Assembly: GCA_000004695.1 (NCBI GenBank)
Contig: CM000150.2
Coordinates: 4,064,001 to 4,128,000, forward strand
Direction of reading: 5' to 3'
DNA: 64,000 nt
From: Dictyostelium discoideum
Lineage: Eukaryota
Of the stretch, positions 18,408 through 61,298 are shown piece after piece (position 1 is the stretch's first letter; every line of letters begins with the position of its first letter). The notes beneath the pieces were generated by a model. That model was given only the letters and a program-made list of their open reading frames with translations, had not been told where the DNA came from and made no database searches. A program made the translations under genes and the position numbers.

Positions 18408-21400
18408 TTATTCATCCATTTCATTATCTTCTTCTTCATCTTCATCTTCATCTTCAATTTCAGCAGGTAAAATATTAATATTTAATTCATGTTCTTGATC
18501 ACAACCATTATAAGAATCAGAGAAAAGATAAAGTGATAATTGATGTTTACCAACAGCAGGAGTTGGGAATTCAAATTTAACCTTTGTTTTCTTTAGGAAA
18601 GTGATTCTTTTGATTGCTAATAAATGATTATTCTTTGAATCACCAATTAAAGCCCACCAACCACAAATCTTTTCTTTTGGATAGTAAGGAGCAGAGACAA
18701 CATTGATTGAATCATTGATTTCGATTGGGTTTTCTTCATCATCACCTAAATCTCTTTCGATAACCATTTCAACCGTCATAATTGAGTCAGCATGTAAATC
18801 ATCTTCATCTTGAACTTGATAGGAGATATCGATATCAGGATATTTCATAAAGGATTGAACGAGATCATTTGATTCTTGTTGTGAGAGATCTAATAACTGT
18901 ATACGACTATTGTCATCCAATGACATTAAATCGAAAACACTTTCAATACCTTGAGATGTGATTGCATCGATACGACGTTTATTCATATGTGGTAATTGTT
19001 TGAAAACACTATCACTATCCCACATTGCTTGAGTGATCATTTGAGATAATTCCATAGCAGCAATTGCAGGTTGTAACCAACTATTACTTGAGATAACATC
19101 CACAATCGCTTGAAGTAAACGAGTTGCATTCTCTAATATGAATTTCTGATCTTGATAAAGGTCAGCAGAGATTGATTCTCTACTGAAATGACATTGAAGA
19201 AGTACATTAACTTTGGTTGAAATCTCTTGATAGTTTGGCTTATCAATCTTTTGAGGTAAATGTGAAGCTAGTTTCATCAAAATTTGATCCTCACGATGAC
19301 GAATTGGTAAAGAGTTAAACTCTGGTGCATTTGAAATAATATCCATGATACCTCTACGACGAGTGGTTGACTTTAATGATGAACCAAACAATTCGATAGT
19401 TTGATATTTAAGATAGTAATAACTTGCAATGATACCTAAATTCAATGGGGAAACTTTATCTTGATCGTCTTGAATGGTGATACAATTTGATTGTTCTAAC
19501 TCCACCAATGTATTTTCAACCAATTCTGAAAGATGTTCAGATAGATGTAAATGTGATACACCGGATAGATTGTAATAATTTGGGTTTTGATTTAAACGAC
19601 GATATAAGAAAGTCCAAGTTAGGTAATCCAAAGCATCTTGTTTCTTTGTGATGGTTTTAGTTACAATCTCTGAATTGAATTGATCATGTAAACAATGATC
19701 TAAATGTGATTCAACTGGTAATGGTTCATTTAAAAACATTTTGTAATACTCTTTCTTTGGTGCATGACATAGTAATAAAACTTTGGCAACTTTATTACTA
19801 ATGACACCACCACCCTCTTGTTTGCCAGCACGACCAATCATTTGTAGGATATCATTGATTGGATAATCAATGTATCTAATGTCTTTGCCTTGATATAATT
19901 GTGTACCCATAATAACTACCAATTGTGCAAAAACATTATCTAATAACCATGCGACTGAATGAGTTGCAATCAATACTCTTATTGAACCAGATCTAAATAG
20001 AATTTCAACTACACGTCTTTCTCTTTCGGTTAAACCATCATGATAGAATGCAACACCCATTTGAAGTGATTGTTTCAATGCAAATGAATCAACATCCTCT
20101 AGATAGGGTGTCAATACATGTTCTTCACAAACTAGATATGGTTTAGTTAAAGTATCCTCGAATGAACTAACATTTGCAATGATATCGGCTGCTAATGATC
20201 TTGATAACTTTCTTGTTGGTACGAATACAATTGATTGTTGATTCTTATTTTTGGCAACTTCATAAACTGTTGGTTTTGTCATTGCCAACATTCTTGCATT
20301 GAAATGTGGGAATTCGAAACCTTGAATTTGATATTCCACTGGTATTGGACGAACATTTGGATGGAAATTATAACAAGTTTGTGGTGTTGCACCAATCCAT
20401 AATACTAAATCTCTAGCGTTGGCAATGGAAGAGGATAAAGCAATCACACGAAGTGCATTACCAGTTTGTGTTGAAATGTAACGCATTCTTGAAACGACAA
20501 TCTCCATTGTTGGACCATATTCACCACCAATTAAATGTAATTCATCAACAATCAATAGATTGATAGATTGTAAAGCTTTACGTTGTTTCCATTTTCTAGA
20601 GAGGATATCCCATTTCTCACAATTTGTAACGATAATATTTGAACGATCTAAAATTTTATTATCAGTAACTGCATCACCAGTTAAATCAGAAACTACCAAA
20701 CCAAATGGTGATTTCACACCAAATTTGTTTGACCAATCCTTTAATCTAACAGAAGCTAAATCTTGCATTGGTGCTAAATAAACAACCTTTGCTTTTGGAT
20801 TTTGTTTGAAACATCTAATCAAAGCAATCTCTGCACAAACGGTTTTACCACTATTGGTTGGTGCAGAAATGAATGCATTATCATTGGATTGATACATACA
20901 ATTGAAGACTTGAGTTTGAATTGCATTGAAAATGGAGAAAGTTGGCTTAAAGATTGATTCAGCTTTTGGATCTTTTAAAACTTGAATTGGTAATGGTTGA
21001 AGATCTAACAAAGGTCTACATGGTGGATATTTCTCTGGTAAAATTAAATGTTGGAAACTGATTGGTAATGAATATTCTGCACCAATCCAATGATCACTAA
21101 TAACACGTACATAATATTGTGGTGGTAATGGTTGTGATAATGGTACGGTGAAACTAACCAATTGATCCTCACCATTGACCATCTTTTTCTTTAATGAGAA
21201 ATACTCAAAGTATAGAATTCTCTCACCATCCACATCCTCAACTATAATCCACCAACCGATTGAATTGTTATGATAACGTTCATCATACTGAAAATCGGGA
21301 GTAATTGATAATTCAACCCTTAAAAGGCCATGTAAAATTGGTTGAACATGTGCAGTTAAATCTAATTTTGGGAAATTATGAATTAAATCGAATAATTGTT

Positions 21401-24400
21401 TACCTTCGGATGGATTTTGAATTGCATTACCAAGTTGTTGAGAATTATATTCGTAGAGATCTTCAATTGGGATACCTCTTCTCTCGAGTTGATTCAATAC
21501 TTTTGGAGAGATCTTGTGGAATTGACGTAGTGGTGATTGTGATGACCACATTTTACTATCGATCATTTTTGCAAGGTTAAGTATTTTCTTTGCCAATTGT
21601 GCCCAACCTTTCTTTAGAACAATTTCAAACAATGCTCTTGTAATACGTGATGCAGATTGTGCAATATAAAACATATCGACCACCAATGCAAAACCATCCA
21701 ATTTCAAATTACTAATATAGGTTTGTAATAAAACATTGATCTTTGAGGAAGGTTCTTCTATATTCTCTTTGATTGGAATTGGTACACGTTCTAGTAATTT
21801 CTCTAATTCGAATTTTTCACCCTCTCTAACAACGACATTTTTAAATTCTGAAGAGAGTGAGAAAACACGAAGTAATTCGATATCAGACATTGAAGGTTTC
21901 AAATGTTCTTGATAGATTGACATTGATGAATTGGTGATATAATAATGTGATGCGACTTTACCCAATTCTGTCGATTGTAATTTACCTGATTTTCTATCAT
22001 ACTTTATGAGGGAATTCTTTTCTAAAATAGTTGCAGCTGAATGAACTAAATCTAGACGACGTTGTTCCAACAATGGGTCCTTTTCAAAGTCATCATAGGA
22101 TATCTCGTAAAGTGGTGGATTTCTAATCATACAAATGTAAAGATAAGTATAGCCTAACCAATTTACAGCATCACGTACGGTTTGAATTGAACCCAATACA
22201 ATCTCTGCATTTAAATTATCGGCTATTCTACTAATGAATTGACTCTCGATTGAGAGTTGAGTATTTAACAAAGAGAGATAGAATTGAAGTTCATGTTGAC
22301 TAGTGATAATTATACCCTCACCTTCTTTATCAAAAGGTGGACGACCTGCTCTACCCAACATTTGAGTTACATCCAATGGTGATAATTCACACCAACCTTT
22401 CTCTGGATTATAAATTTGTGTACCTTTGATGATTACAGTATGTGCTGGTAAATTTACACCCCATGCTAAAGTAGCAGTTGAAATGAGTACTTGAATTCTA
22501 TTATCCCCGAAAAGATCTTCAACCAATGAACGATCGGATCTTGATAGACCAGCATGATGTATACCAATACCATAGGGTAAAAGATCTTTTAACTCTGCAT
22601 TTTGAATTTGTTTTGATGCTGTTGCTCTCAAGATCTCTCTAGATGCTGGATCTCTAATATATCTATCTATCGATTGATCTTCGACGGCACGATCACGTAA
22701 ATCCTTACCTGTCTTTGCAGTTTCACGACGAGAATGAACGAAAATTAATATTTGATGATCACCAACTCTTTCTGATACTTTTGTGAATGTAATGTCATTG
22801 CAACGTTGTAATTGTTTAATACCTCTATCAGAGATACCAATGTATTGTTGCTCCAATGGTATTGGTCTATAGGATGAGTCAAAGTAGAACACACCATCGG
22901 GTTCAACACGTAAAAAGGTTGCAACATCTTCATAGTTTGGTAATGTAGCTGATAAACCAACCAAACGTACCATTTGTTGAGTTGATTCAATCATACGCAA
23001 TGTTCTTGCAACGATGCACTCCAACACAGGTCCTCTTTCATCATGAAGTAAATGAATCTCATCGATAATGATTAACTTCACCAATTGAGTGTATGCACGG
23101 TCACCTGACTTTCTAGTGATAATATCCCATTTCTCTGGTGTTGTCACAATGATTTGAGTCTCTGAGATTTGTTTATTAGTTAATGATTGATCACCAGTGA
23201 GCTCATTCACTACGATGCCATAGGATTTCAAACGTTTACTGAAATTACCCACCATCTCCTGTACGAGTGATTTCATTGGTGCAATGTAAACAATCTTAAA
23301 GGCATCCAATCTGATCTTACCACTATCTCTATCACGATTCTTTCCAATTTCATGTAGAATAGTTAACATTGCAACATTAGTCTTACCACTCGACGTTGGT
23401 GCACTCAACAATAAATTATTATCAGTCTTGAATGCACAATCAAATAATTTACTTTGAACTCTATTTAAACTCTTTACACCAGACTCTTCAAATGGTAATC
23501 TTGACCATTCTGGTAACTCCTCAATCGATATCAAACGTTCATTTGGATTAAATGGTGGATTTGCTCTTGCTGGTACATGAATCTCTTCAAATCCTTTATA
23601 TTGTTCACGTTTACTACCTTTTGGAAATTTAAATTCTTTATTTGTCATTAAATGACTACCTTGTTGAAATGATAATTCTTCTAAATTTAATAATTTTTTT
23701 GGTTTTTTAATTTCATCTTGTTGTTGTTGTTGTTGTTGTTTCATTTCAACATCTTTTTTATTTGATTCTGTTTTTTCTATTGTTTTTTCTGTTGTTGCTG
23801 CTGTAACTTCATTACCCTTTAATCTATTCAATATACTTAATGTTACTGGATTACTTGACATTTCATCTTCAATTTTTTTTCTTTCTTGATCGTTCTCTGC
23901 TTTTGCTAATAATGTACAATATAAAACTAAAAAAAAAAAAAATGTTAGTAAAAAAAAATTAATAAATTTTAATAAAATCAATTTGAAAAAAAATACTTAC
24001 TAGTTTGTTTATTATTTATAATTAATTTTAAAAAATCTAATTTATCAATTGTAAAAAGGTCAACTAATTGTTGTTCACATCTTCTAACATTTGGTTGACG
24101 TAAAATATTTAAAGTTTTCTCTGCTAATTGTTTTGATAAATCATGATCTCTTTCAAATTCACTAATTTTTCTTTGAATCCAAAATGAATCGATTTCATTT
24201 GGACTAATTAATTTACTATTATTATTTTTATCATCTTTTGTATTTTTTGTATCTGGTTTTTGTGATTTATTATTATTATTATTATTCTCTTTAATTTTTT
24301 GATTTTCATCATCATCATTATTATTTTCATCTTTAGTTTGAATTTCAGAATCTTGAGCTTCACTATCATTATTATTATTATCATCAACTTCATTATTATC

Positions 24401-34506: not shown

Positions 34507-37500
34507 ATAATAATAATAATTTATTTATAAAAAATAATAATAATAATAATTATATAAAATATTAATATTTTATTTTTCTTCTTATAAAAATAAATATAAA
34601 ATAAAAATAAATGATCAAAAAAAAATAAAAATTATAGTGGTTGATTCGTCAACATTAACAATAACAATTGATGATGTGATAAATTATGATACAAATATGG
34701 CATTTTATTCATCAATTAGAATTCATGGTATGGATTATCATAGATTTAATTCATTGGATTCTTTAGGTTCAGATATTTTTTTCCCATTCGCCAGAACTAA
34801 TATATTTGGATATAATTGGGATCCTTTAATATTTGAAAATCAAAGAAATTCAATTTTTACAATTTCAATTGTAGTTTCAGGTGTAATAATAAATTTAAAA
34901 ACAAAATCTTTTTATTTTAATGGTAAAAATCTATTTATCTTATTTATATTTAATATTATTGAAAAAAAAAAAAAAAAAAATTAATTAAATTATTATTATC
35001 ATAGTTCCATATCCAACAGCTCAAATTTATTATTTTTTTCCACAAAACATTATATCTACCCCTTTTAATGAATTCGGATTTCATTATTCCCCAGTGCTTT
35101 CTACCACTAGTAACACACAAACAGCAAAACCATATCAACTATTATTATCACCTAATAAATTATATACTTTTTCAAAACCAATTTCTGGTAAAAAAGGTAG
35201 AATGTCTTTTATTGCAGCTTTTCAGAATTCATATGGGTTAAATAACTTTTCACTTATCAGTCCACTTGAAGATCAGCCAAGAATATCATTACCTCTGAAT
35301 ATAAAAGGTACGTACTTTAATAATAATAATAATAATAATAAAAATAATAATAATGATTATTAATATTATTAACTGGGAAAAAAAAACTTTTAAAGAATTT
35401 TATAATGGTTCATATGGAAATCCTCAACTTATTTTGTCGTTATATGGTTTTGGTTCTATAAATATACCAACTTTGATACCATTATTTCAAGTGACATTTA
35501 CTGGTAGTTATTATAGATTTTTTGATAATCAATACAAGGTTGGAGTTGATAAACTTGATGCTGGTTGGCCATTTGGGTATATTAGTGGTAATCAAACAAC
35601 CTATGTTCACTCTGTTGACTTTTTAAGACCAATAAACTATTCAGCACTATCTATCATATATAGATTTGGAAGTACTTTACCAAATGAATTTTTTTATCAA
35701 TCTGTTGTAACCAACCTTGGTAAGTAAAATAACAATACTTTTTATTATTATTATTATTATTATTATTTAAACCTCTTGGTGATGAAATGCCATTATGATG
35801 ATTATTATTATTATTATTATTATTAATTAAAAACACATAATAAATTATTTACATTTAATTAAATTATTTTATAGTAACGGAAACAACCCAACCAATTTTG
35901 GTCAGTTATAGCTTCAAACGTTTAAAAGGAAAGAATTCAAATTATTTATTCACAGCAAATATAATTTCAAAGAATGGAGTAAAGAGAATTATATTTGATG
36001 ATATTGATTATGGTTTAAAAACATTAGTTTCAGGTTCAAATAAAAATGGTGTTTATGAAATTATATATACACCATCACAAAATTCATTCTCTGGGATAAT
36101 TTCTTTTTTATGTTATGACATTTATGAAAATAATTTCTACTATTTCCAAGACCAAATTGTTTCTTATGAACCATTTTTAGTTTTTAAAGTTCCTGATTGT
36201 CTTTCAAATTGTAGTTATTTTTATTTAAAATTTAAAAGTATATATAAATATATTAATTATTTGTTTTTTTTAATTTAGATATAAGCGTGGATAGTTTTGA
36301 TAACATCAGTTTCGCAAAGAATAATTTAAATTTATTAAATTCAGCAGGTTATAATACAATGTATTTAAATTCGAGTAAAATTGATCCTGATTCACAACTA
36401 GTACTAATTTTGATGGATCCAATTTCAAAATCATATCAAAGTGCTCAAGGTAATATTCTTTATGGTTCATTTCCAATTGTTTATGATTCAAATTTAAAAT
36501 TATTTACATGTGATTTCATTGTACCAAAAAATAATTTATTTGGTGAAGTTTCGTACTATATTAAATTTACAAATGGTGTTTTGACAAGTAATGAATTAGG
36601 ACCAAATACACCAAAATTATTAGTAAATGAAACATGTATGTATTTTTTTAATTTTTAAAAAATAAATAGTTTAAATTTTTATTTTTTTAACCTTTTTTTT
36701 TTTAATTAAATAAATTTAGATCTAGATAATCAAGGACCAATTTTTAGTTTATTAGTCCCGTTAAATAATGGAGTAATGGTTGATGATAATAGTAGGGAAT
36801 ATGGATATATTTTTAATATTACAGATGATCTTAATGGATTTAGTAGCGGTAGTATAACAGTAAAAGGTTCAATAGATAATTCAAAATATGTATTCAACTT
36901 TTCATTATCAGATGCAATGTATGGTAATAAATTTGAAAGTCAATATCAAATTTTAATTCCAGTTTCAAAACAATGTATATCACAAGTTTATATTATCACC
37001 AATGTAATTTTAAGAGATACAAATAATATTACATCAATTTATAATATTTATAGTAATAATCCAGACCCAACCATAACTCCATTTTTAAAATTTTATGATG
37101 ATGGTATTGGATCAACATATTTAAATATAATTTGTAATCCTCCTATACCAATTGATGAAGATTATCAACAATTAGTTTCTTTCAAACATTCAATTACAAA
37201 CTCAATTATTGATGTTGGTAAATTAAATAATTCAATTAGATTTGACTTTTCAATTGATACACCTAGAACAGGTATAAAAGATAATCAATTACCAATAGTT
37301 TATATAATTAGTGAAAAATTGGATAAAGTCGAATGCCTTTCAACTTTAGAACTAGTAGATAAAATATATGGAACTACAAATTACACATGTACAACTACAT
37401 TACCAATTGGTTTTGGTTATCCTGGTATTTTGATTTTTTCAATTTATGGTTTTATAAATAATGCAGGTTATTTTTTTGGTTATCCAACAGATACAATTGC

Positions 37501-38857
37501 TAAATTTTTTCCATCATCATATTATGTCAATATAAACTACCTTGTTGATGAAGAACCAATTATTACATCGACTGATAATATTTTTTCAACTGGTGGTAAT
37601 TTATTAATTTATGGTAAATCATTATCAAATACAAAACAAGTATCAATTTATTATTCTGAAACCAATGTACAAAGTACAATAGTTCAAGATGAAATATATG
37701 GATCAAGTGCAGTTTTAATCAATTCAATTTCGGAAACATCAAAACCATTTAAAATTCAAATAATTACAACTTCTGGTTTAAAATCAAATGAATATTGGGT
37801 AACTCCAATTTATTTTGAAACAACAACCCCAGTAATTCCAACTAATCCACCACAAAAATGTAGTGGTAATCCAGAATGTGGCGGTAAATCACAAGGTTAC
37901 TGTTCACCAAATGGTTGTATTTGTTTTTCACCTTGGATTGGTACAAGCTGTCAATCAAAAGTTATAGTTGTACCACCACCAATTGTAAATCCAAATGAAC
38001 CATCAACTAATATTATAACCAATTCAAGCAAAAGTGAAACATCATCGTTAGTTGGTGTAATTTCAATTGTTTCATTAAGAGAATTAGATCATAACAATAA
38101 AGTTATTAAAATTTTTAAATTTGAAAAATGGAATCAAACAAATTTAGAAAAGAATAAAAATATCTATTCAACAAGCATTAAATTTCAAGATAATAATAGT
38201 AATAACGATTGTTTTATAAATGTTGAAACTGAATGGTATGAAACATTAAGAAATATAACATTTGCAAATCAATTATTAGTAATGAATCCCTCAACATTAA
38301 AATATAATATAAACATTACAGCATATCCATTCCAATCGAAATTAAATACACTCCAATTAGTAATCAGAGCAAAACTAACTCAAAATGATTATAATGATGA
38401 TATATGCTCAAATCAAGAATTTGGTAAAACAGTTGCAGATAATTCAGATTTTATTCAATTATCAGTAAAAGATCATTCGTTATATGGTAGATTTGTTAAA
38501 AGAGGTATCGTAGATGGTAGAATTACATCAATTGGTAATGTTAAACTTAATGATTTAGATGATGAATCAAATTATTATACATCAGATTCATTCGTTGGTA
38601 TTGTAATTCCACAATACACAAATCTAATTCAACTAGATCCTGATTTTGGTTTATTGGTAGATAGTTCACCAACTGATTCAACATGTAAAAAAAGTGCATC
38701 ACTTTCAAAAGAAGCAAAGATTGGTATAATCGTAGGTTGTATTGGTTTTGTAATTGTTGTTGTAATAGTTGTAACTTTATGTGTAAAATATAAATATCAT
38801 ATTAGAAATTTAAAATCTGTTATTAAAATGAATCAAATCAAAGCGAATAAAAATTAA
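34007..38857 (+). CDS. Seven-exon gene, about 1399 aa: type I membrane glycoprotein with signal peptide, large extracellular region, EGF-like module (CSGNPECGGKSQGYCSPNGCICFSPWIGTSCQ), a single transmembrane segment (IGIIVGCIGFVIVVVIVVTLCV) and a short basic tail
   Basis: join(34007..34436, 34638..34922, 35005..35307, 35396..35719, 35875..36237, 36279..36635, 36720..38857). The donors are GTAATA, GTAAAA, GTACGT, GTAAGT, GTATAT and GTATGT, and the acceptors are all (T)nAG. All six introns are phase 1, and the frames of the ORF-track pieces are reproduced across every junction. Confidence 0.7.
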
Positions 38858-41352: not shown

Positions 41353-41415
41353 ATAATTTTAATTTTTTTAATTTTTTTAATTTTTTTAATTTTTTTAATT
41401 TTTTTAATTTTTTTT
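41353..41415. repeat. (AATTTTTTT)n tandem repeat, about 6 units, 240 bp upstream of the 4-TM gene
   Basis: Direct reading of the sequence. Confidence 0.8.
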
Positions 41416-41654: not shown

Positions 41655-41658
<4 letters not shown>

Positions 41659-42522
41659 TTAAAGTCTTACCACTCATTTCTTTTATTTTAATCATATTAG
41701 CAGCTGTATGTACTATCATTGGTTTTTCAAGTATGTATTAATTTATTTGTCTTTATCTTTTTATTTTTAATTTTTTTTTTCTATTTTATTTTTTTTTTTT
41801 TTAATTTTTTTTTTTTTTTATTAATTTTTAAATCATTTTATTATTTAAGCTTATTGGTATCAAATAAAAATCGAGGGTGCTGATGGTGCAGTTATTGAAA
41901 CTTATTATAAATATAATAAAGTTAATGTTATTGTTTCAATTGATGGAGATGAAGTATCAGGAACAACTGGATATGATGAAGTAGATGGAGAATTCTCAGC
42001 TCAATTAAAATTCTATAAAGCTGCCTTAGCTATGGATATTTTAGCCTTTGTCAATTTATTCTTTTCAGCATGCTACTTGGGTTTTGCATTATTCAAAGGA
42101 ATTTCTCAAGCCAGTCAAACAAAATTTAAGAATTCATTAAATGGTGCAACTATATTTTTAATTATTGCTACATTTGTTGTATTAGGTTTACCAAAGGTAT
42201 TTTTTCAATAATTTTTTTATTTTTTTATTTTTTTTTTTATTCATTTCGTAAATTAACAATTCATTTCTATTTTTTTTAAAAGGCTCGTAGAGAGGATTGT
42301 GAAGATTATGCTAATGACAGTAGTTATAATTACTCTGGTAGCCAAGTTAAAGATATTTGTAGTATCGGAATTAATAAAAAATTCATTGGTAGTGAAACTG
42401 AAGTTGATGGTTCAAAATATTCATGGGGACCAACAACTGCTTGGATTGCCATTGTAATTGGTCTTGGTCTCACATTCTTTAACAATGTCTTTGTTTACAT
42501 TGCTCCAATTTTCAAAGACTAA
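41655..42522 (+). CDS. Three-exon gene missed by the ORF track: 220-aa four-transmembrane protein (join 41655..41730, 41850..42196, 42283..42522)
   Basis: Exon 1 is ATG...GGTTTTTCAA followed by GTATGT. Exon 2 follows a TTTAAG acceptor and ends ...CCAAAG followed by GTATTT. Exon 3 follows AAAAG and ends TAA at 42520..42522. The phases are consistent (1 then 0). The hydrophobic segments are LPLISFILIILAAVCTIIGF, ALAMDILAFVNLFFSACYLGFALF, GATIFLIIATFVVLGLP and AWIAIVIGLGLTFFNNVFVYIA. A Cys-containing loop lies between segments 3 and 4. Confidence 0.6.
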
Positions 42523-42602
42523 AGAATTTTTTTTAAAAAAAAAAAAAAAAAACAAAAAAAATAAATTAACAACTTGCAAAAATAAACAAATATGTTTATT
42601 AG

Positions 42603-42637
<35 letters not shown>

Positions 42638-42976
42638 ATTCTACATGTTTCTTTTGTTTATTTAATAATTTTTAATTTAAAATCTAACTAGGACTAATAA
42701 GTAGAACAAGAATCGATGATATATTATTTTACAATTTGCAAAATATATTTATTAGATTAAAATAATAAAAAATATATTTATTAGACAAAAAAAAAAAAAA
42801 TGAAAAAAAAAAAAATGAAAAAAAAAAAAATTTCTATATGTTTCTTATATTTATTTAATAATTTTATTATTTCAAATCCAACCAGAATCAATAAGTTGAA
42901 CCATAGTCGTGATAATTTATTTATTTTTTTTTTTTTTTTTTTTTTTTTTTATTTTTTATTTTTTTTTAAAAAATCC

Positions 42977-45690
42977 TTAATTAACCCAATCCAAATCATA
43001 TTTATATAATTTATTATTAGATAAAGATATTTTAAGGTGGTTTAATAAAATTGGATCGTTTTTAATGCTATTGATTTTGTTACTATTGTCATTATAAAAA
43101 TATTTTAGAATATGAATATTATTGTTTTTGATTGCATGAGTGATTGAGTAATTTGTAATTTTAAATTGATTTGGATAATAAGAGATAACCAAGTTACATA
43201 AATGAGTAATACCTAAAACAAATGCACTTATAAATATATTATTATTATCATTAATATACTGATTTTTTAGTTCTTCTTCATCGTCCTGTTGTTGTTGTTG
43301 AAGAGTATCTTCTTGAAAAATTATTTTAAATAAATTTTGATATTCACTTTGATTAAAAAGTTTTGATAATACATTAGACTGAACCTTTGATTTTTCAATA
43401 CTAATTAATTCATGTTCTTTAGTAGGATTATCAATTTCATCTATTTCAAATTGATGTAATAAATAATTATAAGTTTCTTTTAAAATTAATTTTTTAATAT
43501 CAGATGGTGTTGAAGGATTAATTAATTTTTTATAATTATCTTGATTTTTAATCTTTAAGAAATGCGATTGTAAGAATTCTAAAAATCTAACTTCAAATAG
43601 TTTTTTTGATTGATTAAAAACCATTGATTGAAATTTAAAAGGCTTTTTTACTCTTTCGAAATAATTCTCTAAAAAGAATTTTGATTCTAAATAACTATCA
43701 CAACTATTAACTAATTGAGGTGTTGAAGTAATAGTATTTAAAGATGAAATGGTGATTTCATAATTCTCTAAGATAAATTTAGAAATTTCAAAATTATTTT
43801 TAAATATTGATTCATCAAAAATTGCAGAATGAAATGCTGATTGGTAAAAATTAAATTCTATAAATCTTTGAATTTCATCTGTGTTCATTATTTTACAAGA
43901 TAAACTTATTACTTTTGGAGAGAAATCAAAAGAGTTTATTAAAACAACGGGTTTAATAAATAGATCTTCTTGTTGTTTGATTTTAGTTGTTGTTAAAGGT
44001 TGTTCAGTTGGAGGCATTAAAGGTAACTTTCTAATAGATTCATCTCTTAACTTACTTGCTGATAATAGTGAAAATGCTGGTACTTGATATAAATAAGTTT
44101 TCAAAGGGAATGTTGAACCTATTGGTACTTTTTCACGTAGACAATCAATGTGATCTTGAATGATTTCAAATTGATCAAAGAATAAATCTACTCTTTTAAT
44201 TAATAATAAATACTCTAATGTTAAATTCATAAATTCATGAAATTCATCAAGATAATGTGGGTATTCAATTATATTGATATAATTTAAAAATAATTGTGAA
44301 ATTAACATTTCAATAATTTTATCGAATGAATTGATATAATCACCACTACCACCATTATTATTTTTACCAAATATAAAATCAAATGTAAATTTATCAGATT
44401 CAAAATAATCAATAATGTCATAAACAGTTGGATCAATTTGATACTCGATTGAACAATTATAATATCTTTCTTTTGATTTTGAAAAAGGTTCAGTTATTCT
44501 TGGTATTGATAAAATGAATTTTATAAATTTGGTATCTCTAATTTGTAGGTAATAGAATGAATGATATAAAGTGTGTTTAATTGGTACTGAATTACTTTGA
44601 AATAGTGTATTAATTTCTATAATTTGTTCTTTTGTTACTTTCTTTGATTGAATTAATTTTTCAAAAATAAATTTAATTATAAGAATCAATGATTCAAATG
44701 ATTCGATTGGAATTGATTTTAATCGTTCAATTAATTTTATAATTATTGAATGTAATTCCTTTGCATTTGATTTTTCATCATGATAAATCGTTGTACTAAA
44801 AATATATCTTGGTGAATCATAAAATCTATCACCTTCACTATCACTAAAAGATATTACTTTATTTGAGTTGAATTGATTGGTAGTTTCCTCTTTTTTCTTA
44901 TCAAAAATTGTACTATTTATTATTAATTCAAAAATTGGTAAATCTAATGATAAAGTTGATTCTATTAATAGATTTTTTATAATATCAACTTCCATATTTT
45001 CAATATTTAATTTAATATCTGAATAAATTTTTGAATTTTTGATTTGATTAATAATTTCATTTTGAAATAATTTAAATGAACTTTTTGAAAAGTTTTTAAA
45101 ACCAATTTCATTAAAATATTCAATTAATTCTAATACTTTTGTTTCTGTTGTAGTTTTAGTTTCTGTTGTTGTTATTATTATTGTTTCTGTTGTTGCTGTA
45201 CTTGAAATTAATTTTTCACCATCTTCTTCAAATATTACTCCTAAAGAATTTAAATATTTCAAATTATCAATATTAAAATTGATTACTGAATTATACCAAA
45301 TGAAATTATATATGAGTTTCTTTAATTTCCCTGCACAACCACTACTACTGCCACTGCCATTGCTACTGCTGCCACTGCTACTGCTACTAGAATTTAATTT
45401 CGATTCACATAGATTTAAAAAGTATGATAATAATTCTACAGATTCAAATCTAAATGATAATATATTTTTTTTTTCAATTAAAAATGATTGAACAATCCAT
45501 TTATCATTATTTTCAGAAATCCAATCTAAAATTGATTTTTCTTTAATTATAATAATATCATTATCCTTTTTTTTTAAAATCTCAAATAAAATTGGATTCC
45601 ATTTACAATTCTCTAAATCTATTGGAAGTTGAGTTTTTAAACTACCATTCTCTTTTAATTCTAAAATTCTAAAAAATTCAATAAATTCAC

Positions 45691-45750
<60 letters not shown>

Positions 45751-46189
45751 CATTATTATCATTGTTGTGTAGTTCTTTGATTGTTTTTTTATATTTTAGT
45801 GTGTATTCTAAATAAAAGTCAATTATTTGTTTATAAATAATTTCATCAGTTTTATTTGATTTTTGAGAACCTTTTGAAGATAATGATTTTTTTATTATTG
45901 TTTTTATAAATAATTTTTGTAGTTTTTTAATTGACTTCTCATTGTTATTATTTTTATCATTATCGTAATTAAAAATTATTTTATCATTATCATTATCTAT
46001 ACAATAATTATTATATATTTTTAATACTAATAGAAGTTCACCGATTGTGCTATTTATTGAAAGGTCTGGTAGTTTTCCATTTTCTTTTAAAACTATATCT
46101 AAATCAATTAATTTATTCCTTAATTCTATATCTTTAAATAATAAAAACATTGAGTACCCAATTTTAGTTATATCAATTTCAATAATTTC

Positions 46190-46281
<92 letters not shown>

Positions 46282-46313
46282 TTGATTTAAATCTCTTTAA
46301 AGGCTGTTCCTCT

Positions 46314-46376
<63 letters not shown>

Positions 46377-47104
46377 TTAAAATCAAAAACTGAAAATAAG
46401 GAAATTAGTTGGTTTTCAGTAAATTCATTAATTTTAGATTTTAATGCCAAGTTGATTGAATTCTTTTTTATTCTTTGAATTTCCATATTATAGATAATAT
46501 TGTTTTTATCACTGTTGGTGTTGATGAGTTTTAATAAGATTTGAAGGATTTGTGGATCAGAATAAGTTGATATTGCATATTCTAAAGCTGATGGGTTAAC
46601 TTTTAAAGAGTATTCTTGATTTCCTAATATTTCCAATGCATCAACACAATTACATTTGGTAGCTACATGTATTAAATCTACGATTTCAAATTCTATTCTT
46701 TTATTTTTTAATAATAATATTAAAATCTCTTTTAATATACCATTGTTATTATTATTAGTTGTTGTTGATGCTGTTGTTGTGGTTATTGTTGTTGTTGATG
46801 TAGTATTAACGAATTCAATTCTTGATTTTGACAATGCTGAAAAAAATGTAGTGATTGAATTTTTACTAATTTTAATATAATCATTGGATTCCAATTTACA
46901 CTTTATTAATTGATAAAGGTTCTTTTTAATCATCCAATCTAAAGAATGAATATCTTTAAATTTTTTACGATTTTCTGGGTGAATGTTTTGTGGATCATCA
47001 TATTCAATCCATTCTAAACAATGAATTTGTTTAAAAATTAAACTAAGCAAATATTTATTATGAAATATTTGCCAAAATAATCCTTCAATATAATTATCAC
47101 CCAT
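42977..47104 (-). CDS. Large hypothetical protein (1375 aa), paralogue A of a tandem pair. It has ankyrin-like N- and C-terminal segments with poly-Asn, poly-Ser and poly-Thr inserts
   Basis: Single ORF. The N-terminus (FWQIFHNKYLLSLIFKQIHCLEWIEYDDPQNIH...KFKDIHSLDWMIKKNLYQLIKCKL) and C-terminus (YYPNQFKITNYSITHAIKNNNIHILKYFY...YDLDWVN) are clearly homologous to the ORF at 48718..53547. Confidence 0.7.
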
Positions 47105-55219: not shown

Positions 55220-55223
<4 letters not shown>

Positions 55224-58200
55224 TTATAGAAAGTACTGAGTGAATTATTGTTTTTTTTGAGATGTTTAGGAAGTTCTATTGCGTGAAGAGGTGAGTTCCA
55301 TTGTCTGCTAAATTGTAATAGCTTTAGCGAGATTAGTGAGTCTAATTTATTTTGTTCTTCTGGCCGTTGCTTTGATTTGATTCTTAATGTTTTGTTTATA
55401 ACCGCTTGTGTCCTGTCCCATGCAGCTCTTTGTGTTTTAATTAGTTCACGTATGACTTGTTGTCTGTGAATTATTATTTCTTTTTCATCGTGAATGAGTT
55501 TATTTCTTTTGTGCCAGATTTTATCGAATATAATAGCTATTAAATTGGCTACTAGTGCAATTTGTAGATGGTTTAAAATCTTCACATTCCAGGTGTGAGT
55601 GGTGTGTCCACACTTAGTTAGGGTGTAGTTGAAGATTTCTTGTGTGTTTTTGATGTGGGCTTTGCAGTTGAAGAATATATGTTCTGAGGTCTCATCTTCC
55701 CCACACTGTTGGCATGGCATGTTGTATATTTTTGGTAGTGCTTTCAGTGTGTATCTCCATAATAGATCTCTACCTTTCATGTTTATTATTTTTTTGATTT
55801 CTTTAAATGGAAGGTGTTTGCTATTAATTTTGGTCATTATTTCTTTTTGGCCAGGAGTTGGTATGAATTTGTTGTGTTCAGGAGATTGAGTTGTCATCAT
55901 ATCTTCGTATATTTTTTTTAATTTTGGGAGGTGTTCGTAGTGTGTTTGTTTATTTTGTGGAGTTTTTAATTGGGTCCATGCTTGCTTGCATTGCCAGTGT
56001 AGTTGTAGTTGATTTTGTTTTGTTGTTGTTTTGTTGTTGTTGTTGTTTTTGAGTTCCTCTTCCCACAGTTTTATATATGAACTAGGAGTGTTACTTACTC
56101 TTTGGTGGAGGTATCTTTCGAATAACCATGCTTTCTGTGCTAGTTCTCTTGTCTTCAGGTTCCATAAGTTTAGGCCACCATTGATATAGTTGTTTTGTCT
56201 TCTTTGTAGTGAAAGAGAGTTTTTAGATTTTGTGTTGAAAACGAATTTTACGATGTTATTTTCAATACTATTGTGTTGTGGTGTGGTGTTGATGTAAGTG
56301 TGGAACGTTAACTGAGATAGTGCATATGTTTTTGCCATTATGAGTCTGCCCATATAGGTTGATGAAGTTGAGTTCCATGTTACTAGTTTAGCTCTGATGT
56401 TGTCTGAGATTGTATTGATTTTGGATTTGATACCCTTATTGTTGAAGTCAAAGCCGAGGTACCTTTCGTTTGATTTTATGACGGTGTATAGCGTTCTGGT
56501 GTTCCATTTGAAAGTGATACACGAGCATTTGGTTTGGTTTATTTTTGCGCTGGTTGCTTGGCAAAACTTCTTGATCCATTCATTCATGAGGAAATGGTCC
56601 ATAAAGTTGTATGCTATTGTTGCTGTATCATCGGCGAACTGTAGTATTTTAATGGTTTCTTTGGTTACACCATTGATGCAGCGGTCATTTATTATAGTAG
56701 TTGCCATGCATTCAACCACTAATGCGAAGATAGTGGGAGAGATAGGATCACCTTGTTTGGTTCCTCTTTTTGATGTAAAGCTTTTAGATAATGAGTTATT
56801 GATGTACACTGATGTTTCTGATTCATTGAGTAAGTTCATTATTGTGAGGACCATTTTGAGTGGTAGTTTTAGATGTGCAAGAGTACGTAGAATGGCGTTA
56901 TGTGAGATTGAATCGAATGCTTTTTCAAAATCATAAAATGTTATGATTGGTTCCATATCCTCTTTTGTGTTAATCTCTCGTTTTATTATTTCTATTGTTG
57001 AGTTTAAGGTGATGATGTTATCGTGCAGTAGTCTTCTTGGTACGAATCCAGTTTGGAATGGTGAGATTATTTTGTTTAAGAACTTCAGGATCCTATTGTT
57101 GATTATTTTCGAATAGATTTTGTAATCGACATTTAGAAGTGTTATTGGTCTATAATTATCCAGGTTGTTTGGGTCTCCTTTGTTTTTATATATAGTAATC
57201 AATATCCCTTGTTTGAAGTCCTTTGGGATTGTTGTGTTCCAGAAGTGATTGTATAGTTTTGATATTATTGGTAGAATTTCATTAATGTGGTTTTTGTAAA
57301 ATGTTGGAAGGAGTCCATCTTTACCAGGTGCTTTTCCTTCTTGTATTTTTTCAATGCCTAGTCTGATTTCATATCCTTCTATTGGTTGATTAATTTCGTC
57401 CAATATCTTTTGATCAATCCTTTTATTGAATGTTTTTAGGAGTTCGTGGTGAGTGTCTTCGTTGCATTCTCTCTTCTGGTACAGGTTCTCGTAATATCTT
57501 CTTGCTACTTCGAGGATATCCTCGTGTTTTGTTACCAAACAATTGTTGCTTGGATCTAGAATTTGAGGGATTTCATTTGTCTTTCTTTGGACTTTTAACC
57601 TTCTGGTTAAGTATTTTGATGGTGTTTCTTTGTTGTTGATGTGGGTGTTGGTTTGGTTTGCTTGTTTTATTCTTACTTGTTCCTTTAGAATATTGTTGAT
57701 CTCTTCTTTAAGGAAGATTGCTCTTGAATCTTTGGCTGTTTCGAGTTTTTCTGCGAGTTCTTTTAGTTTGTTTTTGGTTTTATTGCTTTCTCTAATTTCT
57801 ATATTAATTGACAGTTTCTTTATTTCATCTTTTAGTTTCAACCATTGTTCGCAAATGTTTAATTTGTACCATTTGCTGGTGTTCTCTTCGAATTTTTTAT
57901 TGTAGTATTTAATTGTTTTATTAATTTTGAGGCTGGTTGAATTCATTTTGAGAGTTTCTAGGTTTTGTCTCCATAGTCTTTCTCCTTTCTTTTGTTGCTC
58001 GTATTCTGGTATTTTTAATTCAATGATTACCATGTTGTGATCAGATTTTAATTTGATTTCCTTAGTAGTAACTATTGGGTTTAGATGGAGTATCTTCTTT
58101 GAGACAAAGACCCTATCGATGGTTGATTTGTTTCTTGGAAATGTGATTCCATTCTTAATTTCTGTAAATTCGAATTCGTCGAAGATTGTTTTAATATATT

Positions 58201-58441
58201 TGTTAAGGTTATTATCCACTGAACAGTCTACATTGAAGTCTCCAGTTATAATATCGCTGTGTAGTATTTCTTCTGTGAGATTTTCCTTATACCATTCATG
58301 TCTTTCGTTTGACTTTGCTGGGGCATAAATGGTTGTGCATTTGATCTGTGTTTTTGCAATCATCCATTCGGAAGATATAATTCTTTCGTTTATTGTTTTT
58401 GTTGTTGTTTTTATTTGGGTGTTGATGATGATTTGTGACAC
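55220..58441 (-). CDS. Retrotransposon ORF2: APE-type endonuclease, reverse transcriptase and zinc-finger domain (1073 aa from the first Met)
   Basis: It has endonuclease motifs (GDFNVD, SDHNMV), RT motifs (YRPITLLNVDYKIYSKIINNRI, FDFEKAFDSISH, QGDPISPTIFAL, LQFADDTA) and a CQQCGEDETSEHIFFNCKAH finger. The frame may be open upstream of the Met, towards ORF1. Confidence 0.85.
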
Positions 58442-58653
58442 CCCTTGTCCTGTTTTATCAATTGGTGCGTGGTGTGTTATTTTGTTTTTATATTGTTGAT
58501 TTATTGAGTAAATTTTATTTGTTTTTATATTTGTTTCAGTTAGAAGTGCTGCGTCCAGCTTGTTGTTGTCTAAAACGGTGTTTATTATGCTGGCAGATTG
58601 GATGGTGTTGGATCCTTGGACGTTCCAAACACCTATTCTTATTGTGTTTTTCT

Positions 58654-59988
58654 TTATAGTTTTATTTGGGGTAGATTTTTATCTACCTTTTGAAGTTTCT
58701 GGTTTATTTTGTCTTCTAACTGATCTTTACTTTGTTCGTTGTGTTGTTGGTCTTGTGTGTTTGTGGGGTTTTTTGATTTATTGATTTGTTTTAGAATTTC
58801 CTTGTTGAAGTTGTCTATATCTTCATCCATTTTTGTTTTTATGCTTTTTTGTCCATATTCACCCAATTTTGGTTTGACTGGTGTTTTGTTGGTCTTGTTT
58901 GTTTTGTCTTGTTGTTTCTTTTTTGGTGTGTTTAACAATTTACTTGGTGAATCGATAATTTTCGATGGTGTACCATAGGTTGGGCTGAAACTCATGATAT
59001 GTTTTATTGGAGAGGAGAAGAACCATTGATTTGAAGGGATTGAAAGTGGGAATTCTATTTTTCTTATTGCATCAGTGTTTGGGCTGGTGAAGTCGAAGAT
59101 ATCATTTGCCTCTCTAAGTTTTTCTTCCGTTGTTAGTCCCTTTGTTTCGCCGTGTTGTTTTATTGGTGTATTGTATGGAGATGGTGGTTCGATAGGTTTT
59201 TCTGATTTTGTTTTAATTTCTTGATTGTTTATCGATTGTGTATTGATCTCATTCTCTATTCTTGTTAGTTCATCTACGTTTTCTAGTGATGCTTCTATTA
59301 CCTTTTGAGCTGTATCATCTAGGGCCATAAATGTTTTATCATTAGATGAGGATGTGATTGGTGGGATAATGATTGTTCTTTTTCCTTGTTTTGGTATTTG
59401 TTCTGATGTAAATTGTGGTTGTTGTTCATCTGATTGTTTTTTATTTTTGTTTTCTTCTTGATTTTCTGGTAATGAGGTTTGATCTCTCCATCCTTTGTTG
59501 GAGTGTCCAATTAATGTTAAATTGTCTAGTTCAATGATAGTGTCAAATTCTTCTACGACTCTTTTCACTGTTTTGATAATTAGAGTTTCGCCTTTAATTT
59601 CTGATTTAATTAGTTTACATCCTTCATTTTCTATTACCCATTCTATTTCTGTGAGTGATTTATACCAATCAAAATCTGTATACATATTTTTTGGTCTTAT
59701 AGTGGTTATAAATTGTCCTTTTAATTCTGCATCAAACATATTTACAAAATAGATTACTGTACTAATACTGTCTGTGAGAATTTTGAATGTATTATTACTT
59801 TTGATTAAAACATCTTTTTTGTCCAAACTTTTTTCTAAATCTTTTTTTATTTTATCGTCTGGTTCGTGATTGATGTTTATGACGTATTTGAATTGTTTTT
59901 TTTTTAATTGAGTTTTATCCACAATTTCGCTTATTTTTTGTAGGCATTTGTGTTGCTTAATATTTGTGGTGTTGTTTGTGATTTTCAT
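58654..59988 (-). CDS. Retrotransposon ORF1 (444 aa), basic and K/Q-rich
   Basis: ORF immediately 5' of ORF2 on the same strand. Its ATG lies inside the B-module. Confidence 0.75.
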   Translation of the reverse strand: MKITNNTTNIKQHKCLQKISEIVDKTQLKKKQFKYVININHEPDDKIKKDLEKSLDKKDVLIKSNNTFKILTDSISTVIYFVNMFDAELKGQFITTIRPKNMYTDFDWYKSLTEIEWVIENEGCKLIKSEIKGETLIIKTVKRVVEEFDTIIELDNLTLIGHSNKGWRDQTSLPENQEENKNKKQSDEQQPQFTSEQIPKQGKRTIIIPPITSSSNDKTFMALDDTAQKVIEASLENVDELTRIENEINTQSINNQEIKTKSEKPIEPPSPYNTPIKQHGETKGLTTEEKLREANDIFDFTSPNTDAIRKIEFPLSIPSNQWFFSSPIKHIMSFSPTYGTPSKIIDSPSKLLNTPKKKQQDKTNKTNKTPVKPKLGEYGQKSIKTKMDEDIDNFNKEILKQINKSKNPTNTQDQQHNEQSKDQLEDKINQKLQKVDKNLPQIKL

Positions 59989-61225: not shown

Positions 61226-61298
61226 GCTCGATTAGCTCAGTCGGCAGAGCGTGGTGCTAATAACGCCACGGTCGCAGGTTCGATCCCTGCATCGAGCA
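61226..61298 (+). tRNA. tRNA-Ile (anticodon AAT), 73 nt
   Basis: GCTCGAT TA GCTC AGTCGGC AGAGC G TGGTG CTAATAA CGCCA CGGTC GCAGG TTCGATC CCTGC ATCGAGC A. The acceptor stem is 7 bp (GCTCGAT/ATCGAGC). The D-arm carries the A box (TAGCTCAGTCGG). The anticodon stem is 5 bp with loop CTAATAA, giving anticodon AAT. The T-arm is GCAGG/CCTGC with the B box GGTTCGATCC. Confidence 0.9.

Follow-up and report, generated by a model that had tools for sequence, protein, structure and literature searches.

DDB_G0270050 of Dictyostelium discoideum, a member of a dictyostelid-specific family of small four-pass membrane proteins with a predicted claudin fold

The three-exon gene at positions 41655–42522 of the window, the 64,000-nucleotide stretch of Dictyostelium discoideum DNA analysed here, encodes DDB_G0270050. 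Judged by its sequence, this protein is a member of an uncharacterised, dictyostelid-specific family of small four-pass membrane proteins, and it is predicted at high confidence to adopt the claudin fold. The best overall explanation of the locus, which we consider very probable, is that it belongs to a tandem-duplicated dictyostelid family with claudin-fold architecture. The spliced product matches DDB_G0270050 of D. discoideum AX4, which we take to be placed on chromosome 1, with 100% identity over 100% coverage. The same three-exon gene is called in D. discoideum assembly GCA_054883475.1, in which the DNA is identical over the gene. A sequence-only reading of the window had described the gene as unannotated. 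This is wrong for the public annotation because the product equals a protein already deposited as a "hypothetical protein" (EAL72375.1, XP_646502.1, UniProt Q55CH9), and for the same reason the locus adds nothing as a gene call. DDB_G0270050 is an ordinary gene, known but uncharacterised, and novelty is limited to its family and its classification as a claudin fold; the reading of the sequence itself was correct and its structural guess largely so. The features of the gene and its neighbours are given below by position in the window, and the protein segments are predicted.

36776–38857, plus strand: ComC-like gene, neighbour of DDB_G0270050
39221–40786, plus strand: FNIP-repeat gene, neighbour of DDB_G0270050
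41655–41730, plus strand: exon 1, 76 nt; ATG in an A-run context; encodes MVK and TM1
41664–41729, plus strand: TM1, residues 4–25, pLDDT about 97
41731–41849, plus strand: intron 1, 119 nt, gtatgt...tttaag, 6.7% GC, phase 1
41850–42196, plus strand: exon 2, 347 nt; loop 1, TM2, cytoplasmic loop and TM3
to 41995, plus strand: extracellular loop 1, residues 26–74, ~49 residues, four predicted β-strands
41996–42094, plus strand: TM2, predicted helix, exon 2
42095–42130, plus strand: Lys-rich cytoplasmic loop between TM2 and TM3, short, 12 residues
42131–42196, plus strand: TM3, extended into exon 3
42197–42282, plus strand: intron 2, 86 nt, gtattt...aaaag, 10.5% GC, phase 0, between LGLPK and ARREDC
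42283–42522, plus strand: exon 3, 240 nt; TM3 extension, loop 2, TM4, 6-residue C-terminal tail and stop
to 42435, plus strand: extracellular loop 2, residues 142–192, ~51 residues, β-hairpin
42298–42300, plus strand: Cys147, loop 2
42358–42360, plus strand: Cys167, loop 2
42436–42501, plus strand: TM4, predicted helix, exon 3
42520–42522, plus strand: stop codon, ends the 220-residue ORF
42560–42565, plus strand: AATAAA hexamer, candidate polyadenylation signal 38 nt past the stop, a consensus match alone
42977–47104, minus strand: 1375-residue gene, convergent neighbour of DDB_G0270050

Joining the three exons gives a 663-nt ORF of 220 codons plus stop. From the ATG at 41655, exon 1 comprises 25 codons and one base, hence the phase-1 intron, and the boundaries (slashes mark the junctions) are CAA/gtatgt...tttaag/CTT for intron 1 and AAG/gtattt...aaaag/GCT for intron 2. 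The proposal of three exons, spliced at GTATGT...TTTAAG and GTATTT...AAAAG into a continuous ORF, agrees with this model in all coordinates and boundaries. Retention of either intron introduces a stop codon within ~5 codons. The window is ~20% GC and contains long runs of A and T as well as short, very AT-rich introns; at the locus, the GC content is 28–34% in the exons, 7–10.5% in the introns and 12–16% in the flanks. The frame of exon 2 is free of stops over 41849–42211, a run of 120 codons that is unlikely to be due to chance because just 0.12 stop-free runs of ≥115 codons are expected per 64 kb at the local composition. The statement that a track of Met-to-stop ORFs is empty at this locus is nearly accurate, the exception being a 59-residue ATG ORF (42032–42211) in the frame of exon 2. 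Across the locus the opposite strand has no ORF of more than 52 residues and none with an ATG start, so that an opposite-strand gene, the competitor that the sequence-only reading had named as a possible refutation, was rejected. A tblastn search with the DDB_G0270050 protein identified no paralogue within the 64-kb window.

Several other features of the window were recorded. A 9-nt microsatellite (TAATTTTTT) with ~6 copies is located at 41356–41413, ~250 nt before the ATG. Between DDB_G0270050 and the convergent 1375-residue gene, the 3′ intergenic DNA contains a 63-nt direct repeat (42610–42672 and 42803–42865, 89% identity) composed of an A-run followed by TTCTAYATGTTTCTT..TTTATTTAATAATTTT. 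The region 55220–59988 on the minus strand contains two large ORFs with a GC content of 31–34% and strong strand skew, one of which (1073 residues) has a reverse-transcriptase domain (RVT_1, E 3e-33). A tRNA-Ile(AAT) gene is present at 61226–61298 on the plus strand, ~1.2 kb from these ORFs, which resemble one of the tRNA-gene-targeting non-LTR retrotransposons of Dictyostelium. The 1857-residue ORF at 18408–23981 on the minus strand, with DEAD, Helicase_C, Sec63 and SNRNP200 wHTH domains, is a Brr2/SNRNP200-type spliceosomal helicase, and its location accounts for the GC-richer block at 18–24 kb.

The gene model was compared with those of related loci in other dictyostelids. The syntenic orthologues from D. 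citrinum (84% amino acid identity; exons of 76, 347 and 240 nt) and D. firmibasis (71%; exons of 76, 347 and 237 nt), and a close paralogue at a non-syntenic locus (L006, from the P0003 cluster that contains DDB_G0274245; exons of 76, 347 and 240 nt), have identical intron phases and junction positions, with GT..AG introns in the orthologues. The length of exon 1 and its junction are identical across four comparison loci (L001, L002, L003 and L006), and the position of intron 2 is retained in the orthologues and in L006; intron lengths vary between DDB_G0270050 and its two orthologues. The orthologues in D. citrinum, D. firmibasis and a second D. discoideum assembly have the same neighbouring genes. 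The site of intron 1, FS/[ST]YW in phase 1, is also found in the distant members P0018 of D. purpureum and P0039 of Acytostelium, and its position is common to P0003, P0018 and P0039. Identity in the coding sequence is 88% with D. citrinum and 79% with D. firmibasis, and in the introns 59–66% and 44–50%, respectively. The dN/dS ratio is ~0.22–0.26 over the whole coding sequence, with values of 0.09–0.15 in the TM helices as compared with 0.24–0.35 in the loops.

A paralogue from D. firmibasis, P0010 (L007:4001–4648), is intronless and collinear with DDB_G0270050 across both junctions, and its DNA encodes GFSTYW and VPKARRQDC without interruption; this independently shows that the spliced reading corresponds to the real protein. 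P0010 has 215 residues and is 57% identical. Its genomic context differs, with genes for an ABC transporter and a methyltransferase alongside, and it could have arisen as a retrocopy or by intron loss. A degenerate pattern for junction 2, run against metagenome contigs, gave one match, by chance, in an unrelated contig of 44% GC. At the level of sequence, these comparisons demonstrate the gene model, purifying selection on it, and the family and its distribution.

A word-indexed search identified 10 close Dictyostelium proteins, and a HMMER profile search of 1.84 billion representatives identified 33 relatives at E≤1e-3, of which 10 reached E≤1e-10. DDB_G0270050 was the seed of the profile and its own match is by construction, so that the behaviour of the relatives constitutes the test. 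A second search, with the 36-member alignment against a collection of 5.8 billion proteins, returned at least 13 proteins and added little. The relatives are from Dictyostelium species, D. purpureum, Polysphondylium violaceum, Tieghemostelium, Heterostelium, Acytostelium, Cavenderia and Synstelium; all for which a source organism was retrieved are dictyostelids, a count that excludes three members from JGI metagenome contigs, EukProt entry P0022, and P0037. The family is defined here by a full-length profile match, FS[ST]YW, the Cys pair of loop 2, WGPxxxW and the phase-1 intron within FS[ST]YW. Of its conserved motifs, FS[ST]YW follows TM1, KYN is found in loop 1, LPxAxxxDC closes TM3, with the second Cys of loop 2 ~20 residues beyond it, and WGPxxxW precedes TM4. 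The median C-terminal tail across the family is 6 residues. Members are genomic neighbours in several genomes (PPL_04599/04600, DFA_02760/02761, ACTFIV_010656/010657 and two genes on one D. purpureum contig), and the family therefore expands by tandem duplication.

AX4 contains at least two more members, DDB_G0274245 and DDB_G0284119, the former being 74% identical to DDB_G0270050. DDB_G0274245 was chosen as a gene that starvation induces about 3-fold, independently of rapamycin, and aggregation and CAR1 expression were normal in its GWDI null mutant (PMC6637605); among the family genes searched in the literature, just this one appears, in that one paper. Literature searches with DDB_G0270050, Q55CH9, XP_646502, EAL72375 and DDB_G0284119 found no paper, the three AX4 gene identifiers are absent from the text supplements of PMC6637605, PMC4931340, PMC8535579 and PMC5282741, and searches for an earlier description of claudin-like proteins in Dictyostelium or Amoebozoa gave nothing relevant.

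Some models within the family have unusual structures. In D. discoideum assembly GCA_054859385.1, the 202-residue model P0009 (L004:5001–5872) uses a different donor (TTAATG/gtgcaa) that deletes TM3 and is, for that reason, probably mis-annotated. A second copy ~4 kb away is contained within the 404-residue model P0045 (L004:1–1314), so that the locus holds two nearby copies of the DDB_G0274245 type. In Acytostelium a family member (L008:5605–5967) adjoins an HMG-box gene, and in Cavenderia the family domain of P0025 (DFA_02761-type, 349 residues) is annotated inside a "high mobility group box-containing protein"; this association reflects either conservation of the neighbourhood or a fusion introduced by annotation. 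The family domain is at the extreme C terminus of P0021 from Synstelium (2437 residues) and of P0037 (549 residues), which could be either fused gene models or genuine multi-domain variants.

Hydropathy analysis of the 220-residue product gives hydrophobic segments at about residues 4–25, 85–107, 120–141 and 193–214, in accord with the four-TM protein initially proposed. The loop between TM2 and TM3 has three basic and no acidic residues, and the two long loops have 3 basic and 10 acidic and 6 basic and 9 acidic residues, respectively (K+R and D+E). By charge, the TM2–TM3 loop would be inside, and both termini would therefore be inside also. The cytoplasmic mass is minimal, consisting of 3 residues at the N terminus, the 12-residue loop and a C-terminal tail of 6 residues (APIFKD). 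Constraint on the protein is strongest in the TM helices, which have a majority-residue fraction of 0.86–0.92, as compared with 0.69–0.74 in the loops, and invariant polar residues that include D88, N94 and N208. The Cys-containing loop that had been quoted from the sequence, EDCEDYANDSSYNYSGSQVKDICSIG, corresponds to residues 145–170 and lies in loop 2, which also contains the N-glycosylation sequons N152 and N157; an NY[ST] sequon recurs in close orthologues. Exactly two Cys are present in loop 2 of 34 of the 36 members and none in one member, and loop 1 lacks Cys in 33 of 36. This all-or-none pattern in loop 2 across the family suggests that a disulfide between Cys147 and Cys167 is probable.

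Fold and topology prediction for the spliced product, proposed at the outset as a check, supported the four-helix reading. AF2 with the 36-sequence alignment gave a model with four helices and extracellular strands (pLDDT 91.0, pTM 0.85), in the order helix, four strands, helix, helix, two strands, helix; with the 10 close sequences alone, the order was the same at a pLDDT of 60.6. The predicted model conforms to the claudin fold, which comprises four TM helices and a five-stranded extracellular sheet on a left-handed bundle. Structural matches to the model included TARP gamma-3, claudin-4 and TARP gamma-7, with 146–172 residues aligned at 8–15% identity; lower-ranked matches were generic four-helix bundles with only ~120 residues aligned. 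In a Foldseek comparison with the PDB, the best 50 matches were all TARP, LHFPL4, claudin, DUOXA1 or GSG1L structures. Profile searches with the close and family alignments against all PDB sequences gave no meaningful match. Alignment of the family profile with human PMP22 by hhalign gave a probability of 2.9%, which is a lead at most.

By sequence, DDB_G0270050 falls outside all named claudin-clan families. A Pfam search with the protein gave only noise (E≥0.75), with no match at all to amastin, SUR7/PalI or Fig1. The Pfam matches of other family members (Amastin, 4; Claudin_2, 4; SUR7, 4; PMP22_Claudin, 2; also Fig1 and L_HMGIC_fpl) are all below the gathering score, those to PMP22_Claudin and Claudin_2 having E values of 0.004–0.02, and they do not discriminate between families because MARVEL scores as high as Amastin. 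Classical claudins (PF00822) have a W-[GN]LW-C-C signature in loop 1 that a regular-expression search found in none of the 36 dictyostelid members, [GN]LW itself being absent from all 36. They also have a long C-terminal tail that ends in a PDZ-binding -YV, whereas the 6-residue tail of DDB_G0270050 lacks YV, and a -YV C terminus is present in 1 of the 36 members. The disulfide of claudins is in loop 1, but in the dictyostelid family the Cys pair is in loop 2. Loop 2 of DDB_G0270050 (~51 residues) is far larger than that of claudin-15, -19, -4, -3 and -9 and, unlike that of claudins proper, contributes two strands and short helices. In contrast to the claudins, the family is dictyostelid-specific by sequence.

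Similar distinctions apply to the other claudin-fold groups. PMP22/EMP/MP20 (LIM2) (PF00822/PF13903) has 12% identity to DDB_G0270050 with sub-threshold Pfam scores, and DDB_G0270050 differs in that its Cys pair belongs to loop 2 instead of loop 1 and that its loop 2 is long and contributes two strands. With TARP/Cav gamma, LHFPL4 (GARLH4), GSG1L and DUOXA1, sequence similarity is undetectable; DDB_G0270050 has neither the long C-terminal tail of TARP nor the fifth helix of DUOXA. Amastins (PF07344) are lineage-specific and tandemly duplicated, as is the dictyostelid family, and Cavenderia P0017 has an in-register match to them, although this is sub-threshold (24.4 bits as compared with a cutoff of 27.2), and the amastin loop 1 signature, C-[IVLYF]-[TS]-[LF]-[WF]-G-x-[KRQ]-x-[DENT]-C, is present in none of the 36 members. 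SUR7/PalI (PF06687) matches four members in register at ≤16.3 bits (cutoff, 29.6), and Fig1 (PF12351) gives 14.6 bits (cutoff, 25.3; E 0.033).

Three alternatives concern the nature of the locus and its product. The lack of a Pfam family for the protein would fit a chance spliceable ORF or a decaying pseudogene, but a dN/dS of 0.22–0.26, a frame and junctions conserved in at least three species, synteny, the expectation of 0.12 open runs of this length per 64 kb and the confident AF2 model leave this with a practically negligible probability, and it was rejected. It is also very improbable that TM1 is a cleaved signal peptide and that the mature protein has three TM helices with an extracellular N-terminal β-domain. 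The first hydrophobic segment does begin at residue 4, straight after MVK, as a signal peptide would; however, its hydrophobic core of ~22 residues is long for one, it ranks among the best-conserved segments (0.88 for the close set, in which AVCTIIGFSTYW is invariant), and in the model it is packed in the bundle at a pLDDT of about 97. Only a slight chance is given to a tetraspanin-like, MARVEL-like or other generic four-helix membrane protein in place of the claudin fold. The earlier suggestion of a claudin/PMP22-like or tetraspan-like fold is upheld by AF2 and Foldseek for the claudin part and fails for the tetraspanin part. As had been noted, the product has no CCG motif, and tetraspanins (PF00335), which are defined by CCG and further Cys in a large helical EC2 together with a small EC1, were rejected. 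MARVEL (PF01284), defined by an M-shaped four-helix domain that lacks an extracellular sheet and by an above-threshold Pfam score, was likewise rejected.

With the claudin-fold reading, the path from gene to function may be pictured as follows. Removal of two short AT-rich GT..AG introns yields the 220-residue membrane protein, which would have both termini cytoplasmic and TM1 serving as a signal-anchor. Loop 1 (~49 residues) would fold into four β-strands, TM3, kinked at Gly-Leu-Pro, would reach beyond the membrane, and loop 2, with its probable disulfide and two sequons, would form a β-hairpin that completes the extracellular sheet. Through the conserved TM bundle and this sheet, DDB_G0270050 may form lateral associations, either with further copies of itself or with a different membrane protein, that would organise, stabilise or traffic the partner. 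With its minimal cytoplasmic mass the protein must act via the bundle and sheet, and signalling through cytoplasmic scaffolds is not expected because almost none of it is cytoplasmic. From the architecture and the pattern of conservation, a role like that of the claudin-fold proteins that have short tails and do not form junctions (PMP22/EMP/MP20, LHFPL, calcium-channel gamma and DUOXA-type accessory subunits) has, in our estimate, an about even chance of being right; membrane proteins in general tend to be best conserved in their TM helices, which qualifies the argument from conservation.

The main alternative function, which we regard as unlikely, is that of an analogue of claudins, MP20 and PMP22 in which extracellular sheets from neighbouring cells or the same cell form adhesive or sealing contacts in multicellular stages. 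The predicted fold is that of claudins and MP20, the family was detected in the multicellular Dictyostelia only, and the paralogue DDB_G0274245 is induced by starvation, when cells turn adhesive; yet its null mutant aggregates normally, albeit with possible redundancy (PMC6637605). Further arguments against contact formation are that W-[GN]LW-C-C is present in none of the 36 members, that DDB_G0270050 has no PDZ-binding tail, and that the extracellular loops are the least conserved parts. It is distinctly improbable that DDB_G0270050, DDB_G0274245 and the rest of this claudin-fold family supply the missing membrane part by which Dictyostelium cells seal or contact one another in the multicellular stage. 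The catenin-dependent tip epithelium of Dictyostelium is one candidate site for such a role, which, if true, would mean that the claudin fold was recruited independently for tissue-level contacts outside animals.

Proteins labelled "hypothetical" or "transmembrane" across the Dictyostelia can now be read as one lineage-specific family with a predicted claudin fold, whose hallmarks are paired Cys in loop 2, the FSTYW motif and cytoplasmic tails of minimal length. The family lies outside any Pfam family, and no paper that mentions its members as claudin-like was found. It would be a further case in which the claudin fold is found outside animals and fungi, and it offers a concrete hypothesis for work on dictyostelids, in which DDB_G0270050 and its relatives may be accessory or organiser membrane subunits or else cell-contact proteins.
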